DNA of 15,190 bases from an uncultured Deinococcales bacterium. Its GTDB lineage: Bacteria > Deinococcota > Deinococci > Deinococcales > JAAFIG01. Location of the stretch: assembly GCA_964244895.1 (NCBI GenBank), contig CAXTKV010000131.1, positions 1 through 15,190 on the forward strand. The letters run 5' to 3'. Under the pieces are notes generated by a model that saw nothing but the letters and a program-made list of their open reading frames with translations, searched no databases and was not told the origin of the DNA. Made by a program: the position numbers and the translations under genes. Shown here piece by piece: positions 1,183 to 14,912 of this stretch. The first letter of the stretch is position 1, and every line of letters starts with the position of its first letter.

Positions 1183-1200
1183 CGCCCGCCAGGTGCGCGA

Positions 1201-1243
1201 GAACACCGTCCCGGGCACGAAAGTAGAGTAGCGTCCAGGACGC
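1201..1243. repeat. Paired-palindrome intergenic repeat, copy A (centres 1212/1237, 25 bp apart)
   Basis: GAACACCGTCC-C-GGGCACG ... GCGTCC-A-GGACGC; degenerate. Confidence 0.7.
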
Positions 1244-1292
1244 GAGAACCCCCATCGGCCTACGGCACCGCCCCAACCGAAAGGAAGAACCC

Positions 1293-2378
1293 ATGAACGC
1301 GACCAAAGCACTGCACGATATCGGCCAGAGCTTGTGGCTGGACAACATCACGCGCGGCTTGCTCGACTCCGGCACGCTGGCGCGGTACATCAAAGACCTG
1401 TCCGTGACGGGACTGACCTCCAACCCCACGATTTTCGACGCGGCCATCAAGGGCAGCGCCGATTACGATGCGTCTATCATCGAGAAAACGGAGGCAGGAC
1501 TTTCCGGTGACGCGCTCTTTTTTGAACTGGCGCTCGAGGATCTGACGCGCGCCGCCGACCTGTTCAAACCCGTCCACGACGCGACGCACGGCGTGGACGG
1601 GTTCGTCTCGCTCGAGGTTTCACCATTGCTGGCCTACGACGCCGCGCAGACCATCGCGCAGGCGAAAGCGCTCCACGCCGAGGCCGCCAGAGGGAACCTG
1701 TTCATCAAGATTCCCGGCACGCCCGAAGGTTTGCCCGCCATCGAGGAAGCGATCTTCGCGGGCGTGCCGATCAACGTGACGCTCCTTTTCTCCAGCCAGC
1801 AGTACCTGGCGGCAGCCGAAGCCTACCTGCGCGGCCTCGAGCGCCGCGCCGAAGCCGGGTTGTCGCTCGATATCGCCTCGGTCGCGTCGGTCTTCGTCAG
1901 CCGCTGGGATCGGGCCGTGGCCGACAAGGTTCCCAGCGAGCTTCAGAACCACCTCGGCATCGCCGTCATGAACCAGACTTACAGGGCGTACCGCGACCTG
2001 CTGGAATCCGAGCGCTGGAAGAAGCTCGCCGCCAAAGGCGCTCGTCCTCAGCGCGCGCTCTGGGCCAGCACCGGAACCAAAGACCCGAAAGCCTCCGACG
2101 TGATGTACGTGGCGGCCCTGGCTGCCCCGGACACGGTCAACACCATGCCCGAAGCGACCCTGCTGGCCTACGCCGATCACGGCAGCCTGGGCGCAGTCAT
2201 GCCCGAGGACGGCGGCGATGCCGATGCGACCCTGGCCCGATTCGAGGACGCCGGCATCGACGTGGACGCCCTGGCCGCGCAACTCCAGCGCGAGGGTGCG
2301 GACGCCTTCGTCAAATCCTGGCACGAGCTTCTGGGGCAGATCGCCGCCAAAAGCGCGATGCTCGAGAAGACGCACTGA
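1293..2378 (+). CDS. tal: Transaldolase (~360-aa type)
   Basis: GQSLWLDNITR, GLTSNPTIF, VSLEVSP, NLFIKIPGT (Schiff-base Lys), INVTLLFS, VASVFVSRWD, ALWASTGTK, DTVNTMP; purine-rich AAGGAAG upstream. Confidence 0.96.
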   Translation: MNATKALHDIGQSLWLDNITRGLLDSGTLARYIKDLSVTGLTSNPTIFDAAIKGSADYDASIIEKTEAGLSGDALFFELALEDLTRAADLFKPVHDATHGVDGFVSLEVSPLLAYDAAQTIAQAKALHAEAARGNLFIKIPGTPEGLPAIEEAIFAGVPINVTLLFSSQQYLAAAEAYLRGLERRAEAGLSLDIASVASVFVSRWDRAVADKVPSELQNHLGIAVMNQTYRAYRDLLESERWKKLAAKGARPQRALWASTGTKDPKASDVMYVAALAAPDTVNTMPEATLLAYADHGSLGAVMPEDGGDADATLARFEDAGIDVDALAAQLQREGADAFVKSWHELLGQIAAKSAMLEKTH

Positions 2379-2403
2379 GCGAATTTCAATCGGGGAAAGC
2401 CAA

Positions 2404-2456
2404 GAACACCGTCTGGCACGCGAATATTGAAATGCGTGCTGGACGGTCTTCTCGAG
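2404..2456. repeat. Paired-palindrome intergenic repeat, copy B (centres 2415/2440, 25 bp apart), between convergent genes
   Basis: GAACACCGTCT-G-GCACGC ... GCGTGC-T-GGACGGTCTTCTCGAG; the arms can also pair as one long hairpin. Confidence 0.85.
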
Positions 2457-2470
2457 ATACTCGGGCTCGC

Positions 2471-3559
2471 CTACTGCGGCCTGAGGCGGTAAATGCTCGA
2501 GTCCTCGCCCGAATCCGTCGAGAAGTACAAGAACCCGTCCGGCCCGACCGTCACGTCGCGCAAGCGCCCGTAGGTGTTGTCGATCAGGATTTCCTCCGAT
2601 TTGACGCGTTCGCCGTCCAGTTCCAGGCGGTACAACCGGCCCGTCTTGAGCGCCACGAAGAACAGGTCGCCCTTCCAGGCCGGGAAGGCATCGGCGCTGT
2701 AAAACGCCATGTCGCTGATCGCGATGGTTTCGTTGGGCTTATACGAACGCACGGCGGGCTGGTAGTTCGGCACGTCGCACGGGTTCGTGCCGCGACACAT
2801 CGGCCAGCCGTAATTCTGGCCCTTCTTGATGACGTTCAACTCGTCGTCCGTGTCCGGGCCGTGCTCGGTCTCCCACAATACGTTCGTGCCCGGCTGGAAC
2901 GTCAGCCCCTGCGCGTTCCTCGAGCCGAGCGCCCAGACGCTGCTGTTCGGGAAGGGGTTGTCGGACGGGATGCCGCCATCTTTGGTGACGCGGTGAATCT
3001 TGCCCGCCTTGGAATTCAAGTCCTGCGCCCTCGCGGGGTCGCTGGCGGCGTCGCCCATGCTGGCGTACAACATCCCGTCCGGCCCCAGAATCACGCGGCA
3101 ACCGTTATGGTTCCACCAGCCCGGCATGTCGTCGATCAGGAATTTCTCAGCCGTCAAACCCTTGTCGGTCAGCGTGAAGCTCGAGAGCCGGTTGCGCTTC
3201 GTGTCGCCATCGCGCACATTGTCCTTGAAGTACGAGTAACAGATGTACACGCGCCCCGTGGTGGCGAAGGTCGGATCGAGTTCCATGCCCAGCATCCCGC
3301 CCTCGCCGTCCGGTCTGAAACTGTCCCCGAGTTGCCCCAGCACCCTGACCTGACCCGATTTCAAATCCAGGCTGCTGAGTTTGCCCGAGTACCGCCCGGT
3401 GAACAACAATCGTCCATCGGGCGCGAAATTCAGGCTCCACGGGCGCTCCAGCTTTCCCTTGACGAGCTCCACCCGCCAGCTTTTCTGCGCGTTCTGCGCC
3501 ACCCCAACCGCGCACGCCAGGCCGATCAGTCCGATGACCGCAGGGATTTTCAGATTCAT
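2471..3559 (-). CDS. PQQ-dependent soluble sugar (aldose) dehydrogenase, GSDH/YliI family, with N-terminal signal peptide
   Basis: PWSLNFAPDG, GEGGMLG, HNGCRVILGPDG, GKIHR, GIPSDNPF, GSRNAQG, EHGP, NYGWP, GRLRDV motifs. Start reassigned to ATG 3559 (MNLKIPAVIGLIGLACAVGVA-Q, Sec-type signal) rather than 3910. Confidence 0.9.
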   Translation of the reverse strand: MNLKIPAVIGLIGLACAVGVAQNAQKSWRVELVKGKLERPWSLNFAPDGRLLFTGRYSGKLSSLDLKSGQVRVLGQLGDSFRPDGEGGMLGMELDPTFATTGRVYICYSYFKDNVRDGDTKRNRLSSFTLTDKGLTAEKFLIDDMPGWWNHNGCRVILGPDGMLYASMGDAASDPARAQDLNSKAGKIHRVTKDGGIPSDNPFPNSSVWALGSRNAQGLTFQPGTNVLWETEHGPDTDDELNVIKKGQNYGWPMCRGTNPCDVPNYQPAVRSYKPNETIAISDMAFYSADAFPAWKGDLFFVALKTGRLYRLELDGERVKSEEILIDNTYGRLRDVTVGPDGFLYFSTDSGEDSSIYRLRPQ

Positions 3560-3764
3560 TCTTTGAGGATGGCACGAGAAGTCGGCACGGGCTGAGACGA
3601 GATTGACATTCGCTCGCCGTTTTTGCATCCCCTGCACATAGGGAGGCAAAGGGCGGGACGGGTCGCGTTTCGGACTTGCAAGATTCCGGGCTATCATCCC
3701 AGGTGATGAAGTGCCCATCCCCAGGAAAGGGATTGCGGACACGGGACAGGGAGGACTGGGATGA

Positions 3765-5123
3765 ATGCCGATCGAAACCATCACCACCGACGCCGTGATC
3801 ATCGGCGCGGGCATTTCAGGTCTGGCCGCCGCACGACAACTGCTTGACGCCGGACGCGACGTGATCGTGCTCGAGGCCAGCCACCGCGTCGGCGGGCGCT
3901 TGTACACCAAAACCCTGCCGGACGGTACGGCCTTCGATCTGGGCGGTCAGTGGATCGGCCCGGAGATGGAGCGCGTCAGCGCGCTGGTGTCGGAACTCGG
4001 GCTGACGATCTTTCCGCAGCACAACTCCGGGCGCATGGATTTGTCCACCCAGCCCCTGTCCAGCATGGATCGGTTGACGCAGGCCGAATGGGAATGGTTC
4101 ACCGCCAAGATTTCGTGGCTGGTCAACCAGGTGGACGTGAATGATCCCGCCAAAACCCCGAACGCCGCCGAACTGGACGTGGTGTCCGTAGAGGAATGGA
4201 AGCGCGAGAATTTAGAGAGCGAGTACCTGCGCCACCTGTTCGACCAGCTGGTGCGCACCGAATACACGATTGAACCCAAGGATTTCTCGATGCTGTACCT
4301 GCTCTACTCGATCCGCAGCGCGGGCGGCTTCGAGGATTTGCTGGACATGGACGGCGGCAACCACACCAACCGCATCCAGCAGGGCCTGCAGACGCTCTGC
4401 ACGCGTCTGGCGGACGGCATGGCGGATCGGGTGCGGTTGAACTGCCAGGTCTACGACATCGAACACGACGACCACGGCGTCAAGATCATCAGCGAAGGCG
4501 CCATCGTCAATGCCCGCCACGCGATCCTGGCGATCCCGCCGAACCAAGCGCAACGCATCGACTTCAGCCCCGTGCTGCCGCGCCGACGCATGAAACTGAT
4601 GCAACGCCTGGAGATGGGTTCCGTCATCAAATGCTTCGCCATCTACGACCGACCGTTCTGGCGCGATCAACCCGTCAAATCCATCGACCCGGACGTGCTG
4701 GTCTTCGATCACACGATGGACGCCACCAGCGAGAACGGCAAGCACCCCGCGCTGGTCGCGTTCATCGGCGGTGACGACGCGGTGTTCTGGAGCGACCGAC
4801 CCGTTGAAACGCGCCGCCGCGCGGTGCTCGAGAACCTGGCGATGGTCTTCGGCGACGAAGCCCTGTACCCGCGCGATTACTTCGATCACGACTGGCTGAC
4901 CGAACCCTTCATCGGCGGCGGCTACCAGTGCTACGCGCCCCCCGGCGTGATGACGGGCGGTTTCGCCGAATTGCGCGAGCCGATCGGACGTTTGCACTGG
5001 GCTGGTACGGAAACCGCCGTCGGGTACTACGGGTACGTCGAGGGCGCTCTGGAAGCTGCCGAACGCGCTGCGACCGAGGTGGGGAAGTTCCTGGAGAAAG
5101 ATTTGGGGATTGTAACAACGTAG
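3765..5123 (+). CDS. Flavin-containing amine oxidase (monoamine/putrescine oxidase family)
   Basis: IIGAGISGLAAA FAD motif, LEASHRVGGR, DLGGQWIG, MGSVIK, PFWR, LHWAGTETA, GYVEGA; GGAGG RBS at 3750-3754. Confidence 0.92.
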   Translation: MPIETITTDAVIIGAGISGLAAARQLLDAGRDVIVLEASHRVGGRLYTKTLPDGTAFDLGGQWIGPEMERVSALVSELGLTIFPQHNSGRMDLSTQPLSSMDRLTQAEWEWFTAKISWLVNQVDVNDPAKTPNAAELDVVSVEEWKRENLESEYLRHLFDQLVRTEYTIEPKDFSMLYLLYSIRSAGGFEDLLDMDGGNHTNRIQQGLQTLCTRLADGMADRVRLNCQVYDIEHDDHGVKIISEGAIVNARHAILAIPPNQAQRIDFSPVLPRRRMKLMQRLEMGSVIKCFAIYDRPFWRDQPVKSIDPDVLVFDHTMDATSENGKHPALVAFIGGDDAVFWSDRPVETRRRAVLENLAMVFGDEALYPRDYFDHDWLTEPFIGGGYQCYAPPGVMTGGFAELREPIGRLHWAGTETAVGYYGYVEGALEAAERAATEVGKFLEKDLGIVTT

Positions 5124-5180
5124 AACACCGTCCTGGACAGTGTTCCTGAATCTCGAGAAATCGTGTGGTGGACCGTACTC
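5123..5180. repeat. Paired-palindrome intergenic repeat, copy C (centres 5134/5169, 35 bp apart)
   Basis: GAACACCGTCC-T-GGACAGTGTTC starts at the last base of the stop codon; linker contains TCTCGAGA; second unit degenerate (TGTGG-T-GGACCGTACTC). Confidence 0.75.
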
Positions 5181-5201
5181 CCCAGATTTAACAGGAGTTT
5201 T

Positions 5202-5918
5202 ATGGGTGATATTCCGTTTCCTGATCTTCTCAAATATGGTGAAGCTGACTGGCTCGATTGGAAACGTCAACTGTATAGCGGTCTCGAGCTTCAAGCGATA
5301 GATCGTTCGGAATGGGAAATTGGAAAAGGAACGTTACTCAAAGACCTGGCGGCCCTCGCCAATTCCATGTCTGTCAAAGACAAGCGGTATCTCATTCGTG
5401 GCGTTCAGGATCATGGGTACAAGAGAGAAATTATCGGAGTGTCCAAGCAATTTGATGATGCTGATTTTCAAACATGGGTAAAAAATGCTTTTGATCCGCC
5501 TTTGAAAATCCATTATGAAACGATTGAACCTGAACCTGGAAAGCTCGTAGGAGTCTTTGCTATCGAGTTTGATCCGAGAGGTCCACACGTTGCTGTTCAA
5601 AGCGTGGGGGGAAAGTTATTTGAAGGACAGGTTTGGTTGCGACGCGGCACGCAAAACGATTTTGCGCGCCGGGCGGACTTAGAGGCGCTCCTCGTGACTA
5701 CTCCTATTTGTTTACCAAGATGGGGCGGTACAGGTGCGGAAAAGATACTTACTGCCCACTATGCACCCCGAGAATTGTCGCTCCCTCTTTTTGGGCGGCA
5801 ACACGAAATGCTGTTAGATGGATATGACGTAGCGTATTGGCCTGGCACAAGACGCGAAATACACATTAAGCCCGCCCATCTTTCGAGTCCTGAGCATATT
5901 CTTATGGTGAAACCTTAG
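5202..5918 (+). CDS. Schlafen/AlbA_2-domain protein with short unknown C-terminal extension
   Basis: EADWLDWK (ExxxLEFK-like), LLKDLAALANS, YLIRGVQD, IIGV, VWLRRGTQN match the AlbA_2 pattern. AGGAG RBS before ATG 5202. Clearly AT-richer with different codon usage from neighbours. Confidence 0.78.
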   Translation: MGDIPFPDLLKYGEADWLDWKRQLYSGLELQAIDRSEWEIGKGTLLKDLAALANSMSVKDKRYLIRGVQDHGYKREIIGVSKQFDDADFQTWVKNAFDPPLKIHYETIEPEPGKLVGVFAIEFDPRGPHVAVQSVGGKLFEGQVWLRRGTQNDFARRADLEALLVTTPICLPRWGGTGAEKILTAHYAPRELSLPLFGRQHEMLLDGYDVAYWPGTRREIHIKPAHLSSPEHILMVKP

Positions 5919-5933
5919 AGGTGGAGGTTAGCC

Positions 5934-6716
5934 GTGTCGTTCACGCTCACCTCGTACAACGTCCTGGCCTCGAGTTACATCAGGCCGGGTTTCTACCCGC
6001 GCACGCCGCCGGACGCGCTGAACCCCGCGTGGCGAATCCCGGCGCTCGTGAAGCACATCGTCGATCTGGGATCGGACGTGCTGTGCCTTCAGGAAGTGGA
6101 TGTGAACATCCTTGCGGCCCTGCGTGCGGCGCTCGAGCCATTGGGGTACGTGAGTTACGACGCGAGAAAAGGTCTGGGCAAACCGGATGGGTGCAGCACG
6201 TTTTTTCGCTCGAGCATCTTCAAACCCAAAAGCGTGCAAAGGCTCGAGTACGCCGATGGCAACGGTCTCGAGCTGGATTCGGGGCACGTCGCGCTGGTGG
6301 TTGCGCTCGAATTCGAGGGTCGCACGGTGGGCGTGGCGAACACGCATTTGAAATGGGACGCGCCGGGAACGCCGCTTCGGGCGCGGGTCGGGTTTCGGCA
6401 GATCGTGCAATGGCTGAACGAACGCGAGGAACTCGTGCCGGACGCCGAAGCGTGGATCGTGTGCGGGGATTTCAACGTCACGCCGGAAAACGAACTGATC
6501 GCATCGCTTCGAGCCACCGGGCTCGAGTACGCGCACGTCGGTCTGGACGCGTTCACCTGCAATTCCAATCGGCGCGCGAAAATGATCGATTACGTGTTCT
6601 CTGCGGGCTTGCGATCCGCGCCGATCTCGCCGCCAGAGATCGATGACCTGACGCCGCTGCCATCCTGGGATCAGCCTTCGGATCACTTGCCGCTCAGCGC
6701 TCGGCTCGGGTGGTGA
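5934..6716 (+). CDS. Endonuclease/exonuclease/phosphatase (EEP) family protein, CCR4/nocturnin-like
   Basis: SYNVLA, LCLQEVD, DGCSTFF, NTHLKW, IVCGDFN, IDYVF, PSDHLPL motifs; GGAGG RBS before the GTG start. Confidence 0.9.
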   Translation: MSFTLTSYNVLASSYIRPGFYPRTPPDALNPAWRIPALVKHIVDLGSDVLCLQEVDVNILAALRAALEPLGYVSYDARKGLGKPDGCSTFFRSSIFKPKSVQRLEYADGNGLELDSGHVALVVALEFEGRTVGVANTHLKWDAPGTPLRARVGFRQIVQWLNEREELVPDAEAWIVCGDFNVTPENELIASLRATGLEYAHVGLDAFTCNSNRRAKMIDYVFSAGLRSAPISPPEIDDLTPLPSWDQPSDHLPLSARLGW

Positions 6717-6723
6717 CGAACGA

Positions 6724-6781
6724 GGATACTGTCCTGGACGCAATTTCTCGAGGCTCGAGAACGCCGTCCTGGACGATGTTC
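6724..6781. repeat. Paired-palindrome intergenic repeat, copy D (centres 6735/6770, 35 bp apart)
   Basis: GGATACTGTCC-T-GGACGC ... CTCGAGGCTCGAG ... GAACGCCGTCC-T-GGACGATGTTC. Confidence 0.85.
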
Positions 6782-6853
6782 TTTGATCGTGGCGAGCGGT
6801 GTCTCGCATCTAGCATCTGTGACCTGCCCCGAGAACACATCCTGAAATCGCGG

Positions 6854-6859
6854 TATAAA
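6854..6859 (+). promoter_or_regulatory. Putative -10 box of a leaderless promoter for the aminopeptidase
   Basis: TATAAA 5 nt before ATG 6865; no Shine-Dalgarno. Confidence 0.5.
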
Positions 6860-6864
6860 CGCGC

Positions 6865-7977
6865 ATGGACCCACGAATAGAGAAGCTGGCCGACGTGCTC
6901 GTGCGTCACTCCACCAAACTCCAACCCGGCGAGAAGGTCTTCATCGAGGCCTTCGACACCTCGGACGCGCTCGTGACCGCGCTGATCGATCGGGTCACGC
7001 AGGCCGGAGCGATCCCGTTCGTGGAGACGCGTTCGATGCGCGTGATGCGGTCTTTGTTGACCAACGCCACCGAATCGCAGATGCGCGATATCGCGGCGCA
7101 CGAACTCTCGCGCATGAAGAACGTTCAGGCCTACATGGGCATTCGCGGCAGCCACAACGCGCTGGAATACAGCGATGTCCCGAGCGAGAAATTGCGGCTC
7201 TATTCCTCGATCTGGAATCACCAGGTTCACTCTGAGCAGCGCGTCAACCACACCAAATGGGTCGTGTTGCGCTACCCATCGCCCGCTTTCGCGCAGGCCG
7301 CCGGGATGAGCACGGAAGCCTTCGAGCAGTTTTACTTCGATGTCTGCACGCTGGATTACGCGAAGATGGCCCAGGCGCAAAAGCCCCTGCACAAGCGCAT
7401 GCTCGAGGCCGACCGTGTGCGTTTGACGGGCGTGGACACGGATCTGACGTTCAGCATCAAGGGCATCGGGGCGGTCATGTGCAGCGGCGACCGCAACATC
7501 CCGGATGGTGAAACCTACTCGTGTCCGGTCAAGGACAGCGTCAACGGCGTGATTCACTACAACACGCCGACCATCTATCAGGGTACGCGCTTCACGGACG
7601 TGCGCCTCGAATTCAAGGACGGCAAGATCGTGAATGCCACCGCGTCCGACACGAAGAAACTGAACGCGATCCTGGATTCCGACGAGGGCGCGCGCTATGT
7701 GGGCGAATTCGCCATCGGCTTCAACCCGTACATCCTGAACCCGATGATGGATATTTTGTTCGACGAGAAGATCAACGGGTCGTTTCACTTCACGCCCGGT
7801 CAGGCGTACAAGGCCGCTGGCAACGGCAACACCTCGAGCATTCACTGGGACATGGTGTTCATTCAGCGCCCGGAGTACGGCGGCGGCGAGATCTTTTTTG
7901 ACGACGAGCTGATCCGCAAGGATGGCGTGTTCGTTCCCGCCGACCTGCACGGCCTGAATCCCGAGAACCTAAAGTAA
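6865..7977 (+). CDS. Aminopeptidase, peptidase family M29 (AmpS/AmpT-like)
   Basis: DPRIEKLADVLV start, AQAAGMSTEAFE, NIPDGE, GEFAIG, ILFDEKI, SFHFTPGQAY, SSIHWDMV metal-binding motifs. Confidence 0.93.
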   Translation: MDPRIEKLADVLVRHSTKLQPGEKVFIEAFDTSDALVTALIDRVTQAGAIPFVETRSMRVMRSLLTNATESQMRDIAAHELSRMKNVQAYMGIRGSHNALEYSDVPSEKLRLYSSIWNHQVHSEQRVNHTKWVVLRYPSPAFAQAAGMSTEAFEQFYFDVCTLDYAKMAQAQKPLHKRMLEADRVRLTGVDTDLTFSIKGIGAVMCSGDRNIPDGETYSCPVKDSVNGVIHYNTPTIYQGTRFTDVRLEFKDGKIVNATASDTKKLNAILDSDEGARYVGEFAIGFNPYILNPMMDILFDEKINGSFHFTPGQAYKAAGNGNTSSIHWDMVFIQRPEYGGGEIFFDDELIRKDGVFVPADLHGLNPENLK

Positions 7978-8036
7978 AGACCGTCCAGCACGACGTTTCT
8001 CGAGGCTCGAGCGATACCGTGCTGGACGGTCTTTTT
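7976..8036. repeat. Paired-palindrome intergenic repeat, copy E (centres 7987/8023, 36 bp apart); may double as terminator of the aminopeptidase gene
   Basis: Perfect 17-bp inverted repeat AAAGACCGTCCAGCACG / CGTGCTGGACGGTCTTT around CTCGAGGCTCGAG, ending in a T run. Confidence 0.9.
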
Positions 8037-8132
8037 GTCATCCTGAGCGCAGCGAAGGATCTTCTGGTGTTCGCCCGTCGAACTCGCCCCGAGCGGCGAG
8101 AGATACCTCAATGTGAACGCCTCAGGACGACA
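8036..8132. repeat. Second, distinct REP/MITE-like element (TGTCATCCTGAGCG...CTCAGGAYGACA type)
   Basis: TGTCATCCTGAG (8036-8047) pairs with CTCAGGACGACA (8121-8132); inner GAAGGATCT/AGATACCTC arms; inner hairpin CTCGCC/GGCGAG. Confidence 0.7.
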
Positions 8133-8189
8133 GACTGGATTGGGTGGCGCGGCCCCCGAGGCTCAATCCAATCGGTGCAAAAACCGCGC

Positions 8190-9131
8190 TCAACCCTTGG
8201 AAATCGCGTTCGGTAAAACGTCCGTCTCGAGGTTCAGCCAGGCCAGCTCGCCCTTGCTCAGTTCGATCTCCAGGGCGCGGAACGAACTCTGGGTTTCAGC
8301 CACGCTGCGCGGCCCGATCAACGGCAGCGTCGTGAACGGCTGGTGCAGCACGTAGGCCAGCGCGATGTTGATCGTCTCGACTTTTTGGGCTTTCGCCAGG
8401 GCTTTGGCGCGCTCCAGCCGCAGGAAGTTGTCCGGGCTGTACCAGCAACGCACCAGTTCCTCGTTGCTGGTGTCGTTCGGGTCGCCGAGCACGAAGAAAC
8501 CGCGCGCCTGCGATGACCACGGCATCAGCGCGATGCCGTTCTGCTCGAGCCATACCCTGGATTCCGCGTCGTTGCTGGAAATGCAGCCCGCCCAGACGGG
8601 ATCGATCATGCGCGCCAGACTGAACTGATTGGAGACCGCCGTGAACCCGCGCAAACCCTTCGAGGCGGCGTAGGCGTTGGCCTCGGTGGCTCGCGCGACC
8701 GACCAGTTGGAACCGCCGAAGGCGTGAATCCGACCGAGCGCGTGCTGTTCGTTCAGCGCATCCACGAACTCGCCGACGGGCACGTCCGGGTTGTCGCGGT
8801 GCATCATGTAGACATCCACGAAATCCGTCTGCAAGCGCGAAAGGCTGATCTCGAGCTGCTGCCCGATGGCTTCCGGCGTGCAGTTGGGCGTGTGCGCACC
8901 CTTGCCCAGAATCACCACGGAATCGCGGTCGCCGCGCTCCTGAAGGTACTGCCCCAGCAGCACCTCGCACGCGCCGGATTTGTAGGTGTAAGCCGTGTCG
9001 AAGGCGTTGCCGCCGCGCGCCAGGAAGTCGTCCAGCAAGGGTCTGGACGCCTCGAGATCGGTCTGGTTGTCCATGCCCAGCACCAGCCTGGAGACGGGTT
9101 TGCCGAGGCCGGAAGTGGTCGCGAATTTCAT
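8190..9131 (-). CDS. Aldo/keto reductase
   Basis: FDTAYTY (Asp/Tyr), LGKGAH (Lys), SLSRLQTDFVDVYMMHRD (His), GGSNW, SNQFSLA, PWSSQARG, PLIGPRS. Confidence 0.93.
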   Translation of the reverse strand: MKFATTSGLGKPVSRLVLGMDNQTDLEASRPLLDDFLARGGNAFDTAYTYKSGACEVLLGQYLQERGDRDSVVILGKGAHTPNCTPEAIGQQLEISLSRLQTDFVDVYMMHRDNPDVPVGEFVDALNEQHALGRIHAFGGSNWSVARATEANAYAASKGLRGFTAVSNQFSLARMIDPVWAGCISSNDAESRVWLEQNGIALMPWSSQARGFFVLGDPNDTSNEELVRCWYSPDNFLRLERAKALAKAQKVETINIALAYVLHQPFTTLPLIGPRSVAETQSSFRALEIELSKGELAWLNLETDVLPNAISKG

Positions 9132-9137
9132 GATCTG

Positions 9138-9143
9138 AGCCTA
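9138..9143 (-). promoter_or_regulatory. Putative -10 box (TAGGCT) of a leaderless promoter for the aldo/keto reductase
   Basis: On the minus strand TAGGCT-cagatc-ATG (6-nt spacer); no SD. Confidence 0.55.
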
Positions 9144-9167
9144 CCAGATCGAGCGGTTCCGAAACGA

Positions 9168-9212
9168 GAACACCGTCCAGCACGGGGTTTGTAATACGCG
9201 TGCTGGACGGTG
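9168..9212. repeat. Paired-palindrome intergenic repeat, copy F (centres 9179/9204, 25 bp apart)
   Basis: CACCGTCCAGCACG ... CGTGCTGGACGGTG perfect 14-bp inverted repeat with AT-rich linker. Confidence 0.9.
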
Positions 9213-9351
9213 GGGAGCCTGTTGGAGAAGGTGAAAGGGAAAAGCGCGAAGTGAAGGTTAGGCGATCACGATGCGAGTCGACTCGAGCGCGCGCTGATTC
9301 GTGATCTTCGTGTGACTTGCGGGCGTTTCTCGAGACTTCATCAACTCGCGC

Positions 9352-10509
9352 TCAAACGAGGATCGGATCGTGGATTCGGCCTTCGATGCCGCTCAGGAAT
9401 CCGCCCATAAATCCGCGCCTGACCGCGATCAGTTCCGTCATGATCGAGAGCGCCACCTCGTCGGGACTTTCCGCGCCGATGGCCAGCCCGACGGGTGCCC
9501 TGGATTTCTCGAGCTGAGCGGCGGTGGGTTTGAAACCCTCTTCGGCCAGCGCGTCCAAGAGTTTGTGAAAACGCTGCCTCGGCCCCAGCACGCCGACGTA
9601 GGGGGATGGGGATTCCAGCGCGAAGCGCAGGCTTTCCCGGTCGCGCTCGAGGTGGTGGTTCATGATCATCACGAATGATCTCGGGCCGATCTCGAGGCTT
9701 TTTGCGAACTCCTCGAAGTGCGCGGCCACCAGTTTCGCGTCCGGGAAACGGCCTTGCGTCAGGAAGGCCTCGCGCACGTCCACCACGCTCACGCGCCAGC
9801 CCAGGTCGCGGGCGCGCTGGTTGAGCGGCATCGCATCGTGACCCGCGCCGAAAATCACCAGTTCGGGCGGCGGCGCGCTGGCGTCCAGGAACACGTCCAC
9901 CCGCGAACCATCGGGCAGTTTGAACGTCTGGGTTTCGGCTCGCGGGTAGAGCGCACCCATCATTTCGTGCGCCACCTCGAGCACCTGCCGTTCCAGACCG
10001 GCGGGTTCCAGCCATCCGCGCGTCTCGGATTCGGTGATCATCATGCGACCGCTTGTACTTCTTGCTTGTAAGACAGCACCTGCCGGGCCACTCGCGCCAC
10101 CCGATCTGTCCTCCAGCACGGTCGCCAGCACGCCGACCTCTGCGCGTTCCAGCACGCCCAACCACGCGTCCATGACGGGATCAGATTCCAACTTTTCGAT
10201 GCGAATGTCCACGCTGCCGCCGCAGCCGATGCCCAGACCCCAGACGACATCTTCTTCCAGGTCGTAGGCGGTCACGATTGGCGCACCGCTCTGGATTACG
10301 CCCTTGGCGACCTCGACGACTTCGGGTTCCAGGCAACCGCCCGAGAGCATGCAGGTCATCGCGCCATCGTCGCGCACCAGCATCTTCGCGCCCTCGCGTC
10401 GGTAGGCGCTGCCCTTGACGCGCACCACCGTCGCCAGGGCGATGCCCTGCGCGTGCATTCGTGCATCCTTGATCGAGGCCAGAATATCCTCGGTTTCGCG
10501 GCGTTCCAT
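9352..10509 (-). CDS. xdhC: XdhC/CoxI family molybdenum-cofactor maturation factor
   Basis: LATVVRVKGSAYRREGAKM, LSGGCLE, WGLGIGCGG, LVIFGAGHDA, MNHHLERD, YVGVLGPR, APVGLAIGAESPDEVALSI; GGAGG RBS and a TAGACT -10-like box (10531-10536) upstream. Confidence 0.93.
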   Translation of the reverse strand: MERRETEDILASIKDARMHAQGIALATVVRVKGSAYRREGAKMLVRDDGAMTCMLSGGCLEPEVVEVAKGVIQSGAPIVTAYDLEEDVVWGLGIGCGGSVDIRIEKLESDPVMDAWLGVLERAEVGVLATVLEDRSGGASGPAGAVLQARSTSGRMMITESETRGWLEPAGLERQVLEVAHEMMGALYPRAETQTFKLPDGSRVDVFLDASAPPPELVIFGAGHDAMPLNQRARDLGWRVSVVDVREAFLTQGRFPDAKLVAAHFEEFAKSLEIGPRSFVMIMNHHLERDRESLRFALESPSPYVGVLGPRQRFHKLLDALAEEGFKPTAAQLEKSRAPVGLAIGAESPDEVALSIMTELIAVRRGFMGGFLSGIEGRIHDPILV

Positions 10510-10865
10510 GAAAGCCTCCGGTTCACCGTCAGTCTAATCCCGCGGCTCGAGCCAGATTCGTGAGTTGCGCTCGAAAGCCCACCGTGCACGTCCGAGGGTC
10601 GAGTCCCGGAACCGACGTACGTTCAGACCACGGGTGACAGATGACCTTGCATCTTCAGCACGCACGCGGCTTAGAATGCGACACGTTCTACAACCCAGAC
10701 GGGCGCACCGACTTTTTCAAAGCTCGATGGACCGCCTCGTTCCTCGAGCCGCCTCGCTTGAGTCCACGGCTCACCGATTCACCCGCGCGAGGTCGCCCAT
10801 GAACACGAGCTAGACGCCATGTCGAACCCTCGCCAGAGTCTTCAACCCCATCAGGAGGTGTGTTC

Positions 10866-11366
10866 ATGTCCGTAGTCCCCATCACCATCACCGTCAACGG
10901 CGCGACCGAAACGCATCACGTCGAGCCGCGCACCCTGTTGGTGCACTACTTGCGTGACAAACTCGGTCTGACCGGCACGCACGTCGGTTGCGATACCAGC
11001 CAGTGCGGAGCCTGCACGGTTCACCTGGACGGCGTGGCCGTCAAATCCTGCACGGTTTTCGCCGTTCAGGCCGAAGGCATGAAGGTCACGACCATCGAGG
11101 GCATGGGCGAAACTGGCCACCTGCACCCCTTGCAGCAGGGCTTCTGGGAGGAGCACGGCCTTCAGTGCGGCTACTGCACGCCCGGCATGATCATGTCCTC
11201 CGCGGACTTGTTGTCCCGCAACCCGAACCCGTCTGAAACCGAGATCCGTCACGCCCTGGAAGGCAACTTCTGCCGTTGCACCGGCTACCACAACATCGTC
11301 AAGGCTGTGCAGCACGCGGCGGGCGCGATGGCGAACGCTACGGTCGCGGCGGCGGCAGACGATTGA
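10866..11366 (+). CDS. coxS: Molybdenum hydroxylase small (2Fe-2S) subunit, CoxS/CutS family
   Basis: [12 protein letters not shown]...KSC and QCGYCTPG...CRCTGY cluster ligands; AGGAGGTG RBS favours ATG 10866 over GTG 10860. Confidence 0.95.
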
Positions 11367-11418
11367 ATTGTTCACGGGTCGCGGGTCACGAGTCGCGAGC
11401 GACCATCTCGAGGCGCAA

Positions 11419-11485
11419 TCAGGAACACCGTCCTACACGCATGTTCTCGAGACTCAAAAACGGTGTCCCAGACGGTGTCTCCTGA
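11419..11485. repeat. Paired-palindrome intergenic repeat, copy G (centres 11434/11469, 35 bp apart)
   Basis: TCAGGAACACCGTC ... TCTCGAGA ... GACGGTGTCTCCTGA. Confidence 0.85.
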
Positions 11486-11545
11486 AACCCAGCCGCCTCA
11501 GTTCCTGCTCTGACCCGTGACCCCTGACCACCTGGAGGTTCCACC

Positions 11546-13912
11546 ATGACCGAGAAATTCTTTGGCAAAGCCATGAAGCGCGTCGAAGATCCGCGTTTCA
11601 TCACCGGGGCGGGCAACTACACCGACGACATGCAGGTGCTGGGCATGGTTCACGCCGCGATGGTGCGCTCGCCGTACGCGCACGCGAAAATCAAGAGCAT
11701 CGACTCGAGCGCGGCGCTGGCGCTTCCCGGCGTGCTGGCCGTGCTGACGGGCAAGGACTTGACGGGTGCGGGCATCAACCCGATCCCGACGGGCTGGTTG
11801 CTGCCCGACCTGAAGATTTCCGCCCATCACGCCATCCAGCCCGAGGAAGTCAACCACGTCGGCGATATCGTGGCCGCCGTGATCGCGGAATCGAAAGCCC
11901 TGGCGGAGGACGCCGCCGCGCTGGTCAACGTCGAATACGAAGCGCTGGAGACGGTCACGCTGGGCAGCGCCGCACTCGCGGCGGGCGCGGTGCAGGTGCA
12001 CCCGGAAGCGCCCGGCAACCTGGCCTTCGACTGGGAGATCGGCGACAAGGCCGCCACGGACGCGCAATTCGCGGCAGCGCACAAGACGGTTCGGTTGGAG
12101 CTTCGCAACCACCGCCTGGTGCCGAACGCGATCGAACCCCGCGCCAGCCTGGCGGAGTACAAACGCGCCAGCGAAGAGTACACGCTTCACACCACCAGCC
12201 AGAACCCGCACATTCACCGCGTGATGCTGGGCGCGTTCATCATGGGCATCCCGGAACACAAACTGCGGATCGTCAGCCCGGACGTGGGAGGCGGTTTCGG
12301 CAGCAAGATCTTTCAGTACCCAGAAGAAGTGATCGTGCTGTTCGCCGCCAAGAGGCTCAACAAGCCCGTCAAGTGGACGGCCACGCGCTCCGAGGCGTTC
12401 CTCTCGGATGCCCAGGGCCGCGATCACGAGACGGTGGCTGAGGCCGCCGTGGACGAGAACGGTAAAGTGCTGGCATTGCGGGTGGACACGATCGCCAACC
12501 TGGGCGCGTACCTGACGACCTTCGCGCCCGCCGTGCCGACCTACCTGTACGGCACGCTGATGAACGGCACGTACAAGTGGAAAGCCATCCACTGCCACGT
12601 GCGCGGCGCGTACACCAACACCGTCGGCGTGGACGCTTACCGCGGCGCTGGACGCCCCGAGGCGACCTACGTCCTGGAGCGCATCATGAGCGCGTTGGCG
12701 ATGGAACTGGGCGAAGACCCGGTCGAATTCCGCCGCAAGAACTTCATCCAGCCCGACGAATTCCCGTACCAGACGCCCGTGGCCTTGCAGTACGACAGCG
12801 GCAACTACGAACCCGCCATGGACATGGCGCTCGAGAAACTCGGCTACAAGGCCCTGCGCGCCAAGCAAGCGGAGCTCCGCAAGCAAGGCAAGTACATCGG
12901 CATCGGCGTCAGCACCTATCTCGAGGCGTGTGGCCTCGCGCCGAGCGCCCTGGTGGGTTCACTGGGTGCGCAGGCGGGCCAGTGGGAGAGCGCTCTGGTG
13001 CGCGTCGCTGCGACCGGCAAGGTCGAAGTGCTGAGCGGATCGCGCAGCCACGGCCAGGGCCACGAGACGGCTTTCGCGCAGGTGGTGGCCGACGAATTGC
13101 AGATTCCCGTCGAGGACATCAGCATCATTCAGGGCGACACCGCGCGCCTGCCGCACGGTTGGGGCAGCTACGGCAGCCGCAGCGCACCCGTCGGATTGAG
13201 CGCCATCACGTTGGCGTCCCGCAAGATCATCGACAAGGCCAAGAAGATTGCGGCACACCTCTTAGAAGCCTCCCCGGACGACATGGTTCACGAGAACGGC
13301 AAGTTCAGCGTCAAGGGCGTGCCGGAAAAGTCCAAGAGCTTCTTCGACGTGTCTCTGATGGCGCACCTGGCCCACAACTACCCCGCCGATCTCGAGCCGG
13401 GACTCGAGGCCACGCACTTCTACGACCCGAAGAACTTCGTGTACCCGTTCGGCACGCACCTGGCGGTCGTGGAAATTGACAGCGACACCGGCAAGGTCAA
13501 ACTGACCCGTTACGTCTGCGTGGACGATTGCGGCCCGATCATCAACCCGATGATCGCCGAAGGTCAGGTGCAGGGCGGCGTGGCCCAGGGCATGGGACAG
13601 GCGCTGCTGGAAAACACCGTCTACGACGAATCCGGCAACCTCTCGACCGGCTCGTACATGGATTACGCCATGCCGCGCGCCGACGACATGGTGCAACTCG
13701 AGATCGGTCACACGGTCACGCCCAGCCCGCACAATCCCTTGGGCGTCAAGGGCATCGGCGAGGCGGGCACAATCGCCAGCACCGCCGCCATCGCCAACGC
13801 CGTGGTCGACGCGCTTCAGCCGTTCGGCATCAACCACCTCGACATGCCCTACACCTCCGAGAAGGTCTGGCGCGTCATGAATCAGGGACTGCCGCAGGCC
13901 GCCGACGACTGA
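11546..13912 (+). CDS. coxL: Molybdopterin-binding large subunit, form II (CODH-like) CoxL / xanthine dehydrogenase family; substrate unknown
   Basis: RVEDPRFITG, PDVGGGFGSK, AYRGAGRPE, HGQGHET, GSRS, EGQVQGG, KGIGEAG; GGAGG RBS. Confidence 0.93.
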   Translation: MTEKFFGKAMKRVEDPRFITGAGNYTDDMQVLGMVHAAMVRSPYAHAKIKSIDSSAALALPGVLAVLTGKDLTGAGINPIPTGWLLPDLKISAHHAIQPEEVNHVGDIVAAVIAESKALAEDAAALVNVEYEALETVTLGSAALAAGAVQVHPEAPGNLAFDWEIGDKAATDAQFAAAHKTVRLELRNHRLVPNAIEPRASLAEYKRASEEYTLHTTSQNPHIHRVMLGAFIMGIPEHKLRIVSPDVGGGFGSKIFQYPEEVIVLFAAKRLNKPVKWTATRSEAFLSDAQGRDHETVAEAAVDENGKVLALRVDTIANLGAYLTTFAPAVPTYLYGTLMNGTYKWKAIHCHVRGAYTNTVGVDAYRGAGRPEATYVLERIMSALAMELGEDPVEFRRKNFIQPDEFPYQTPVALQYDSGNYEPAMDMALEKLGYKALRAKQAELRKQGKYIGIGVSTYLEACGLAPSALVGSLGAQAGQWESALVRVAATGKVEVLSGSRSHGQGHETAFAQVVADELQIPVEDISIIQGDTARLPHGWGSYGSRSAPVGLSAITLASRKIIDKAKKIAAHLLEASPDDMVHENGKFSVKGVPEKSKSFFDVSLMAHLAHNYPADLEPGLEATHFYDPKNFVYPFGTHLAVVEIDSDTGKVKLTRYVCVDDCGPIINPMIAEGQVQGGVAQGMGQALLENTVYDESGNLSTGSYMDYAMPRADDMVQLEIGHTVTPSPHNPLGVKGIGEAGTIASTAAIANAVVDALQPFGINHLDMPYTSEKVWRVMNQGLPQAADD

Positions 13913-13923
13913 GATCAATCTGG

Positions 13924-13980
13924 CTCGAGATGCCGTCCAGCACGCAAGAATAATATCGTGTCCTGAACGGTGCGCTCGAG
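13924..13980. repeat. Paired-palindrome intergenic repeat, copy H (centres 13939/13964, 25 bp apart)
   Basis: CTCGAGATGCCGTCC-A-GCACG ... GTGTCC-T-GAACGGTGCGCTCGAG; CTCGAG at both outer ends. Confidence 0.8.
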
Positions 13981-14004
13981 GTTCGACAGTTCTGGGAGGT
14001 TTTC

Positions 14005-14814
14005 ATGTACACGGCTGAATTCACGTACCACAAGGCCAACAGCGTCTCAGAGGCGCTCTCGATGATGGCCGCGAACCCGGACGCCAAACTGCTGGCGGGT
14101 GGGCACTCGCTGGTTCCGGCGATGAAGCTCAGGCTCTCGGCCCCAGCGGCGTTGATCGATGTCTCGAGGATTTCGGAGTTGAAGGGCATCCGCGCGGAGG
14201 GTGACACGGTCATCATCGGTGCGATGACTACGCACCGCGAGATCGAATTTTCCGATCTGCTGAAAAAGCACGTGCCGATCCTGGCGGAAGCCGCGTCCTA
14301 CATCGGTGACCCGATGGTCAGGAACCGCGGAACCATCGGTGGGTCGTTGGCGCACGCTGATCCAGCGGCGGATTACCCGGCCTCGATGCTGGCATTGGGC
14401 GCGAAACTGAAGATCGCTTCCGGCACCGGAACGCGCGTCGTGGACGCCGACCAGTTCTTTCTGGGGATGTACGAAACTGCCCTGCAACCCGGCGAGATGT
14501 TGGTTGAAATTCACGTCCCGGCCAACACCAAGGGTTCCGCCTACGAGAAATTCCCGCACCCCGCCTCGAGATACCCGGTGGCGGGCGTGGCGGTCGTGGT
14601 TCACAGCGATGGCACGCTGCGCGCCGCGCTGACCGGGGCCGGCGATCACGCCACGCACCTGAGCAAGCTCGAGTCGGAGGGCGCGTCGAGCGCCTGCCAG
14701 AAGCTCGTGCCATCATCAGAATTGATGGGCGATCACTTCGCCAGCGCCGATTACCGCGCGCACCTGGTGGACGTGATGGCCAAACGCGCGCTCTCGAGGG
14801 CGACGGGCGCGTAA
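14005..14814 (+). CDS. coxM: Molybdenum hydroxylase FAD-binding medium subunit, CoxM/CutM family
   Basis: LLAGGHSLVPAMKLRL, IGDPMVRNRGTIGGSLAHADPAAD, SADYRAHL; GGAGG RBS. Confidence 0.94.
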   Translation: MYTAEFTYHKANSVSEALSMMAANPDAKLLAGGHSLVPAMKLRLSAPAALIDVSRISELKGIRAEGDTVIIGAMTTHREIEFSDLLKKHVPILAEAASYIGDPMVRNRGTIGGSLAHADPAADYPASMLALGAKLKIASGTGTRVVDADQFFLGMYETALQPGEMLVEIHVPANTKGSAYEKFPHPASRYPVAGVAVVVHSDGTLRAALTGAGDHATHLSKLESEGASSACQKLVPSSELMGDHFASADYRAHLVDVMAKRALSRATGA

Positions 14815-14846
14815 ACCGAGCGAGACACCCCACAGACCGATTTTCA

Positions 14847-14912
14847 AAGAACACCGTCCCAGACGGTGTTCTTTTCGCGTCAAAGCGCATCGTCTTGGAC
14901 GGTGCGCTCGAG
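14847..14912. repeat. Paired-palindrome intergenic repeat, copy I (centres 14860/14896, 36 bp apart)
   Basis: AAGAACACCGTC-CCA-GACGGTGTTCTT hairpin followed by GCGCATCGTCT-T-GGACGGTGCGCTCGAG. Confidence 0.9.

Follow-up and report, generated by a model that had tools for sequence, protein, structure and literature searches.

The stretch of DNA analyzed here (the window, 15,190 nucleotides in length) is contig C131 of genome G000, a metagenome-assembled genome (MAG) of an uncultured Deinococcales bacterium comprising 5.12 Mb on 328 contigs with a completeness of 91%. An affiliation with uncultured Deinococcales is indicated by the homologues of a window protein. Its genes are of the housekeeping type, i.e., pentose-phosphate enzymes, oxidoreductases and a cox-like cluster, with gene names beyond the Pfam labels being those we presume to apply. 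Next to these genes lie nine pairs of palindromic units, and it is the family of these paired units that is the subject of this text. All nine pairs were found at the centers given in a preliminary description of the window, with spacings of 25 bp (four pairs), 35 bp (three) and 36 bp (two). The 25-bp pairs have their centers at 1212/1237 (1200..1249, in the co-directional gap between a HAD hydrolase and a transaldolase gene; 22.3 and 11.0 bits), 2415/2440 (2403..2452, in the convergent gap between the transaldolase and a GSDH-family gene; 32.1 and 33.7 bits), 9179/9204 (9167..9216, between xdhC-like and aldo-keto reductase genes; 33.6 and 12.6 bits) and 13939/13964 (13927..13976, between coxL-like and coxM-like genes). 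The 35-bp pairs are located at 5134/5169 (5122..5181, directly after the stop codon of an amine-oxidase gene, with a decayed second unit), 6735/6770 (6723..6782, after an EEP-family gene; 26.2 and 29.6 bits, with two CTCGAG words in the linker) and 11434/11469 (11422..11481, between coxS-like and coxL-like genes), and the 36-bp pairs at 7987/8023 (7975..8035, in the convergent gap between peptidase M29 and aldo-keto reductase genes) and 14860/14896 (14848..14908, between the coxM-like and an AAA-family gene).

Units were detected with an iterated position weight matrix (PWM) trained on the genome, using at least 12 bits as the main threshold. This value is reached by 17 of the 18 window units, the exception being the weak unit at 1237, which is also inverted relative to the norm. 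A 13-mer core pattern allowing up to two mismatches has 45 matches in the window compared to 12.9 ± 3.8 in 200 shuffles, and the Rfam families gave no match in the window at gathering score. The word CTCGAG was reported for four of the five long linkers, and this is the case. A further weak single unit of 14 bits on the plus strand (13610..13636) lies inside the coxL-like gene and may be due to chance. Run X1 holds a congener that is approximately 89–95% identical; its contigs bridge the 1212/1237 pair without loss of length as well as the 7987/8023 pair, and the alignment breaks at position 5159, inside the 5134/5169 element. Behind this break, window 5202–5918 is a low-GC Schlafen/AlbA_2 gene with approximately 790 other letters in its place in the congener, and several further synteny breaks are also found at elements. 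Directly after the 7987/8023 pair lies a second, rare palindromic repeat (8036–8062) with two to four exact word matches in the genome, which we take to resemble CGTC-type REPs. The 11434/11469 pair is flanked on both sides by short, 7-mer-like tandem repeats (11375–11400 and 11510–11535), and the cox-cluster gaps of relatives (L142–L144) are filled by similar repeats.

Scanning the whole genome with the PWM, as proposed in the preliminary description, resulted in 5,123 positions of at least 12 bits compared to 34 in the reversed genome. These units group into 1,943 pairs, i.e., clusters of two units, 1,101 singles and 35 larger clusters, showing that the statement that units always occur in pairs was too strict, although, of the 460 strong singles in intergenic DNA, 176 are accompanied by a weak partner, in 144 cases at 25/26 or 34–36 bp. 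The quantized spacing noted in the window extends to the entire genome, for which the spacing histogram is discrete and not continuous: 1,772 of the 1,943 pairs belong to four main classes of 25 bp (838), 26 bp (150), 35 bp (570) and 36 bp (214), and the minor classes are 24/34/37 bp (65), 30/31 bp (53), 40–42 bp (32) and 27–29/32–33/38–39 bp (16). The mean offsets are 25.11 and 35.26 bp on the inner side, a main step of 10.1 bp, and 30.44 and 41.39 bp on the outer side, where the step is 11 bp. The offsets form two ladders, each stepping by about one helical turn. The 41-bp class often carries TTTT and AAAA tracts approximately 25 bp outside the unit centers.

The unit itself is a dyad of approximately 27 bp, AA.ACCGT-N5-ACG(G/C), with tracts of A/T located at ±9 to 13; its outer half is conserved, and the inner half exists in two versions. 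The better conservation of the outer half-sites, as seen before in the window, is also found here, with an information content of 18.0 vs. 12.9 bits and 16.1 vs. 12.2 bits. The 25-bp pairs are mostly symmetric and the 35/36-bp pairs mostly polar, with a polarity that is unrelated to transcription. Nearly all copies differ from each other (835 of 836 are distinct at 25 bp); the arms match the consensus with 0.88, compared to a near-random linker identity between random copies of 0.38. In both G000 and the congener, the spacing is kept while the linkers diverge. CTCGAG is present in 44–46% of the long linkers, at offsets at which it extends the unit’s own TTCT/AGAA end. As this word is hyper-abundant in the genome (4.3 per kb) and in the family relatives (4–8 per kb), the preferred interpretation is that its copies in the linkers prolong the unit ends. 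CTCGAG is a HIP1-like word for the Deinococcales family of G000, and GGCGCC, CGGCCG and CCGCGG are strongly avoided in G000 and its family relatives (L022–L067, L220–L319).

The signal extends into the DNA beyond the outer units, where the frequency of AA/TT/AT oscillates with a period of 11.2–11.7 bp out to about +70, so that core and flanks together span approximately 170 bp. The power of this periodicity is 0.21 compared to 0.010 in 20 shifted controls (maximum 0.039) and to 0.005–0.035 when T-tracts located elsewhere (apart from elements, in coding DNA or in a relative) serve as anchors. At the level of RNA, no base-pair covariation was found across the 35/36-bp pairs, for which chimeras fold as well as the real elements, nor within units, as tabulated for the 25- and 35-bp classes. 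There is no asymmetry between the strands, with G-U vs. A-C counts on the mRNA strand of 403 vs. 410 for the 25-bp class, and T-runs are not oriented with transcription (T-run vs. mirror A-run 62/65, 61/46 and 17/19). In the window, five of nine elements fold far better than shuffles and four of nine no better, and an intrinsic-terminator scan flags two of the nine.

Along the chromosome one pair occurs per 2–3 kb. Of the 1,772 main-class pairs, only 19 are intragenic according to the gene calls, and the intergenic copies are biased to 3′ ends with a median position 16–25 bp after the stop codon. Gaps of 200–400 bp are occupied in 79% of convergent, 66% of co-directional and 47% of divergent cases. 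The pairs are spaced more evenly than in a stratified shuffle (coefficient of variation 0.617 vs. 0.716 ± 0.016), 968 gaps of 150–400 bp contain a single pair, 606 are without one and 23 have two, and occupancy rises from 0.53 to 0.75 with the length of the flanking genes. Moreover, 16 contigs of at least 10 kb (344 kb in all) are nearly empty of pairs, and those inspected seem to be mobile or defense-related as judged from their open reading frames.

Sites in coding DNA give information on how pairs originate. Coding DNA contains 94 positions of at least 20 bits compared to 12.3 after synonymous resampling, and 47 pairs compared to approximately 3.5, at the same spacings. The distance of these coding sites to the intergenic pairs is large (1,186 vs. 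636 bp, p = 5e-8). Five coding pairs were compared with relatives, i.e., those in pheT, miaA and a fadB-like gene, one with two extra residues and one without orthologue in five genomes. Aligned to 11 orthologues each, the 36-bp pair in pheT, of which both units have at least 22 bits, and the one of 34 bp in miaA show no gap in any of the 11 cases, and the fadB-like pair is colinear with three of five relatives. In pheT, the first unit results from the lineage-specific residues N-T-V, and the linker residues are largely ancestral, showing that the pair was not pasted as a block. Furthermore, among the coding singles 16 of 18 alignable cases are within three residues of being colinear with relative G006, and three more lie outside the alignment. 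As judged from these sequence comparisons, some pairs seem to have been formed within essential genes by point changes.

The family is restricted to a narrow lineage. A strict paired pattern has 590 sites in G000 and none in 363 other Deinococcota genomes, and a relaxed pattern 518 matches compared to 0–1 in 18 family relatives. In 2 Mb of one relative, four positions of at least 20 bits and no comparable repeat were found, and the other genome contigs, viral contigs, plasmids and phages searched gave no match to the paired family, nor was any RNA source listed as carrying it. One metagenome contig, L001, matched; it is approximately 80% identical to contig C118 and carries, at the same site and with the same length, an orthologous 25-bp pair with a replaced linker (a single case, found by pattern). 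Beside this kept pair L001 has a GTAG REP that has no counterpart in G000. In the congener, 18 of 20 unit-to-unit joints are at 25/26/35/36 bp and the others at 30 and 34 bp among the best-supported joints listed, and comparing orthologous loci for empty sites revealed that, likewise among the best-supported cases, five of five pairs bridged by its contigs were retained.

How might these observations be explained? From the anatomy, the spacing, the phasing, the distribution and the colinearity of the coding sites we infer a protein, a wrapped state and a function. The preliminary description suggested that the spacing reflects a DNA-binding protein contacting both units in a fixed rotational relationship. 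This part of the proposal gains from the discrete spacing, the missing covariation of the 35/36-bp pairs, the lack of strand asymmetry and the phase-locked flanks; the protein and a third turn (45–46 bp) were not found. A phased site read by a protein is needed both for a role in chromosome organization and for a self-DNA signal, and we regard such a site as probable. The more specific reading, i.e., a protein-read and helically phased double site that wraps DNA and is kept at a set density, has in our view about an even chance of being correct. According to it, a putative host protein would contact the two dyads of the double-stranded DNA jointly and with a constant rotational relationship, tolerating distances of 25–26 or 35–36 bp and rarely 30–31 or 41 bp, and would likely bend or wrap approximately 170 bp. 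The role might be in chromosome organization, with a local and saturating benefit of about one site per 2–3 kb. Most intergenic copies would have entered with added DNA via some copying route; selection on the bound state might then keep sequence and spacing and might generate additional pairs through substitutions where coding DNA is long. A bolder version, in which a lineage-specific protein wraps approximately 170 bp at about 1,900 sequence-encoded and helically phased double sites, a chromosome mark of a new class generating an evenly spaced chromatin or a self-recognition lattice able to change the sequence of essential proteins like PheT, is tentative and rather doubtful.

Several observations weigh against the wrapped double site. 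A reader protein was not found when candidates were sought by codon bias, and two abundant candidates of high codon bias had to be rejected since relatives without the motif also have them (12 of 18 and five of five, respectively). The third turn is nearly empty, with one of 1,943 pairs at 45–47 bp, and half-turn classes do exist (85 of 1,943 pairs). The three periods of 10.1, 11.0 and 11.2–11.7 bp disagree. Occupancy does not correlate with codon bias as a proxy of expression (rho −0.003), which counts against a role in transcription-driven supercoiling. In the 25-bp class, complementary bases are in a slight yet real excess of about +0.4 to 0.5 of 17 pairs, equal in all gene contexts. The gene calls for G000 are home-made, and every result on the distribution also fits a drive through DNA uptake. 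Finally, among ten alignable coding pairs six have extra residues in G000, three are near-colinear and one is shorter, with one more outside the alignment, and gaps with a pair exceed their syntenic counterparts in G006 by a median of 66 bp (n = 78) compared to 0 for gaps without a pair (n = 166), a difference that reaches approximately 135 bp at tight junctions. This shows that intergenic copies came with added DNA and that insertion contributed.

GyrA is single-copy and ordinary with no sign of an extra domain, and was rejected as a special reader. A basic protein of 159 amino acids (L321:1094–1573, minus strand) belongs to no Pfam family, has a high codon bias and a Lys/Ala-rich tail, and is conserved in 12 of the 18 genomes of the family, with a distant counterpart in a second family of the order; it is possible that it is a nucleoid protein.

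As an alternative, the pairs might be a self-DNA signal spread by molecular drive, fragments bearing a good phased pair being preferred in uptake, transfer or recombination, so that sites would build up anywhere they can be tolerated, with no function in the chromosome. This would account for the origin in place within coding DNA at the expense of amino-acid changes, for the even spacing and for the near absence from island-like contigs, and the lineage-specific dialect and copy number match the behavior described in parts of the literature on the DNA uptake sequences (DUS) and uptake signal sequences (USS) (PMC2397512, PMC2817400). ComEC is present in G000, and the eight ComEA-type HHH_3 matches (contigs C225, C115, C240, C39, C206 and C179) are the most among 19 family genomes, the others having one to five; relatives lacking the motif, however, also have ComEA-type genes. 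Several of the eight genes have a high codon bias. The uptake sequences known from these sources are short and non-palindromic, one copy is enough and 34–65% lie within reading frames (PMC2397512, PMC2817400), whereas here intragenic main-class pairs are rare, and a double dyad with 70 bp of phased flanks would better suit an intracellular wrapping complex. We therefore regard a pure drive as rather unlikely.

The same doubt applies, somewhat more strongly, to an old mobile family. The preliminary description offered two fixed-length subfamilies of a REPIN/BIME-like element as its alternative; here these, or MITE-like ones, would be decaying after their transposase was lost or remained unassembled, and the 10-bp step would be the length of a duplicated TGTTCTCGAG block and not a helical turn. 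The paired family indeed consists of high-copy, extragenic, imperfect palindromes in inverted dimers, as in REP, BIME and REPIN families, and the 3′-biased position, the DNA added at occupied gaps, the weak covariation of the 25-bp class, CTCGAG at fixed offsets, one identical pair with unrelated flanks and a MAG that is only 91% complete are all consistent with such an origin. REPINs have been described, in parts of PMC3116915, as having doublets at fixed distances with spacers that vary, so that quantized spacing alone is not new. The mobile reading leaves the colinear pheT and miaA pairs unexplained; as intergenic copies carry extra DNA, a copying step can still be envisaged for them. The GTAG tag is absent, as had been stated: the consensus ends in GAACA, and CGTC is internal to the dyad with no unpaired terminal tag.

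A search of the genome with the Pfam Y1_Tnp profile gave no match. Using proteins of relatives in tblastn, one RAYT-like gene was found at L146:1330–1889 (contig C12), of which 1365–1889 scores 52.6 bits for NF047646, below the cut-off of 80. One GTAG REP lies upstream of the gene and a second one within its reading frame, belonging to a family with approximately 109 hairpin hits genome-wide and many identical copies, and no unit of the paired family lies within about 450 bp of the gene. With a completeness of 91%, a second RAYT may be missing from the assembly. A REP-mobilizing nuclease, suggested earlier as the possible reader, is thereby weakened. No flank duplication above z 3.5 was detected over all offsets tried, and CTCGAG was rejected as a target duplication since it occurs at both outer ends less often than by chance (22 vs. 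48 expected). There is no excess of near-identical copies (48 vs. 75 ± 14 and 8 vs. 11 ± 4), the flanks are phased, covariation is missing at 35/36 bp, and the pairs are evenly spaced, whereas REPIN doublets were reported as randomly placed in parts of PMC3116915. Thus, we consider the mobile reading unlikely. Genes between facing single units show no orientation bias (113 cases) and those beside clusters of three to four units are ordinary; an IS110 transposase was not found in the genome search, a GIY-YIG domain matched once, in a frame of 613 amino acids, and 11 tyrosine-recombinase and 20 HTH_3 matches are not linked to the element.

If the elements acted as RNA hairpins, terminating transcription in both directions or stabilizing mRNA, this would fit the highest occupancy in convergent gaps and the five well-folding window elements, but such a role is highly improbable given the missing strand asymmetry, the four window elements folding no better than shuffles, the elements in divergent gaps and between cox-like genes, and a covariation that is equal in all contexts at 25 bp and nil at 35 bp.

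It is a long-standing open question whether extragenic palindromes of high copy number represent selfish relics or features of the chromosome read by proteins. The sites of MatP (matS), SlmA and Noc are palindromic and bound by chromosome-organizing dimers, and they comprise tens of single sites in restricted chromosome regions, compared to the approximately 1,900 phased pairs found here throughout the core genome. If the wrapped double site is structural, it would represent a sequence-positioned chromosome organization at a density well above that of these systems. If it is a drive, it would be an uptake-type signal of new architecture outside the Neisseriaceae and Pasteurellaceae, the families treated in the parts considered of PMC2397512 and PMC2817400. 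In the literature searched, i.e., the top-ranked matches with subscription papers and supplements lying outside the search, no description of the paired family was found, and the main text of PMC3733652 does not mention Deinococcus or Thermus.

Among the known systems, the E. coli gyrase motif (130 bp with 10.75-bp periodic arms), which parts of PMC6379681 interpret as a wrapped complex, shares the symmetric core, the periodic flanks and a similar length. Unlike that degenerate motif, which tracks transcription (PMC6379681), the core here is base-specific, has two lengths and is not linked to the expression proxy. The E. coli REP/BIME and Pseudomonas REPIN families, as portrayed in parts of the respective papers, are also high-copy intergenic inverted dimers near 3′ ends with preferred distances and a variable spacer, and theirs are bound by proteins, BIME-1 carrying an IHF site and BIME-2 being a gyrase target (PMC3333891, PMC3116915, PMC3733652). 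In contrast to them, the paired family lacks a GTAG/CGTC tag, proximity to the genome’s RAYT, hairpin covariation within units and an excess of recent copies, and it has two spacings one turn apart, phased flanks and colinear coding copies. The DUS of Neisseria and the USS of Pasteurellaceae, according to the portions of the sources used here, similarly reach approximately 2,000 evenly spaced copies that arise by mutation and recombination, leave marks in proteins, are absent from recent acquisitions and form lineage dialects (PMC2397512, PMC2817400). Compared to their core of 9–12 bp, however, the element described here is a double dyad of 50–60 bp with fixed-phase pairing, and approximately 99% of its pairs lie outside genes.

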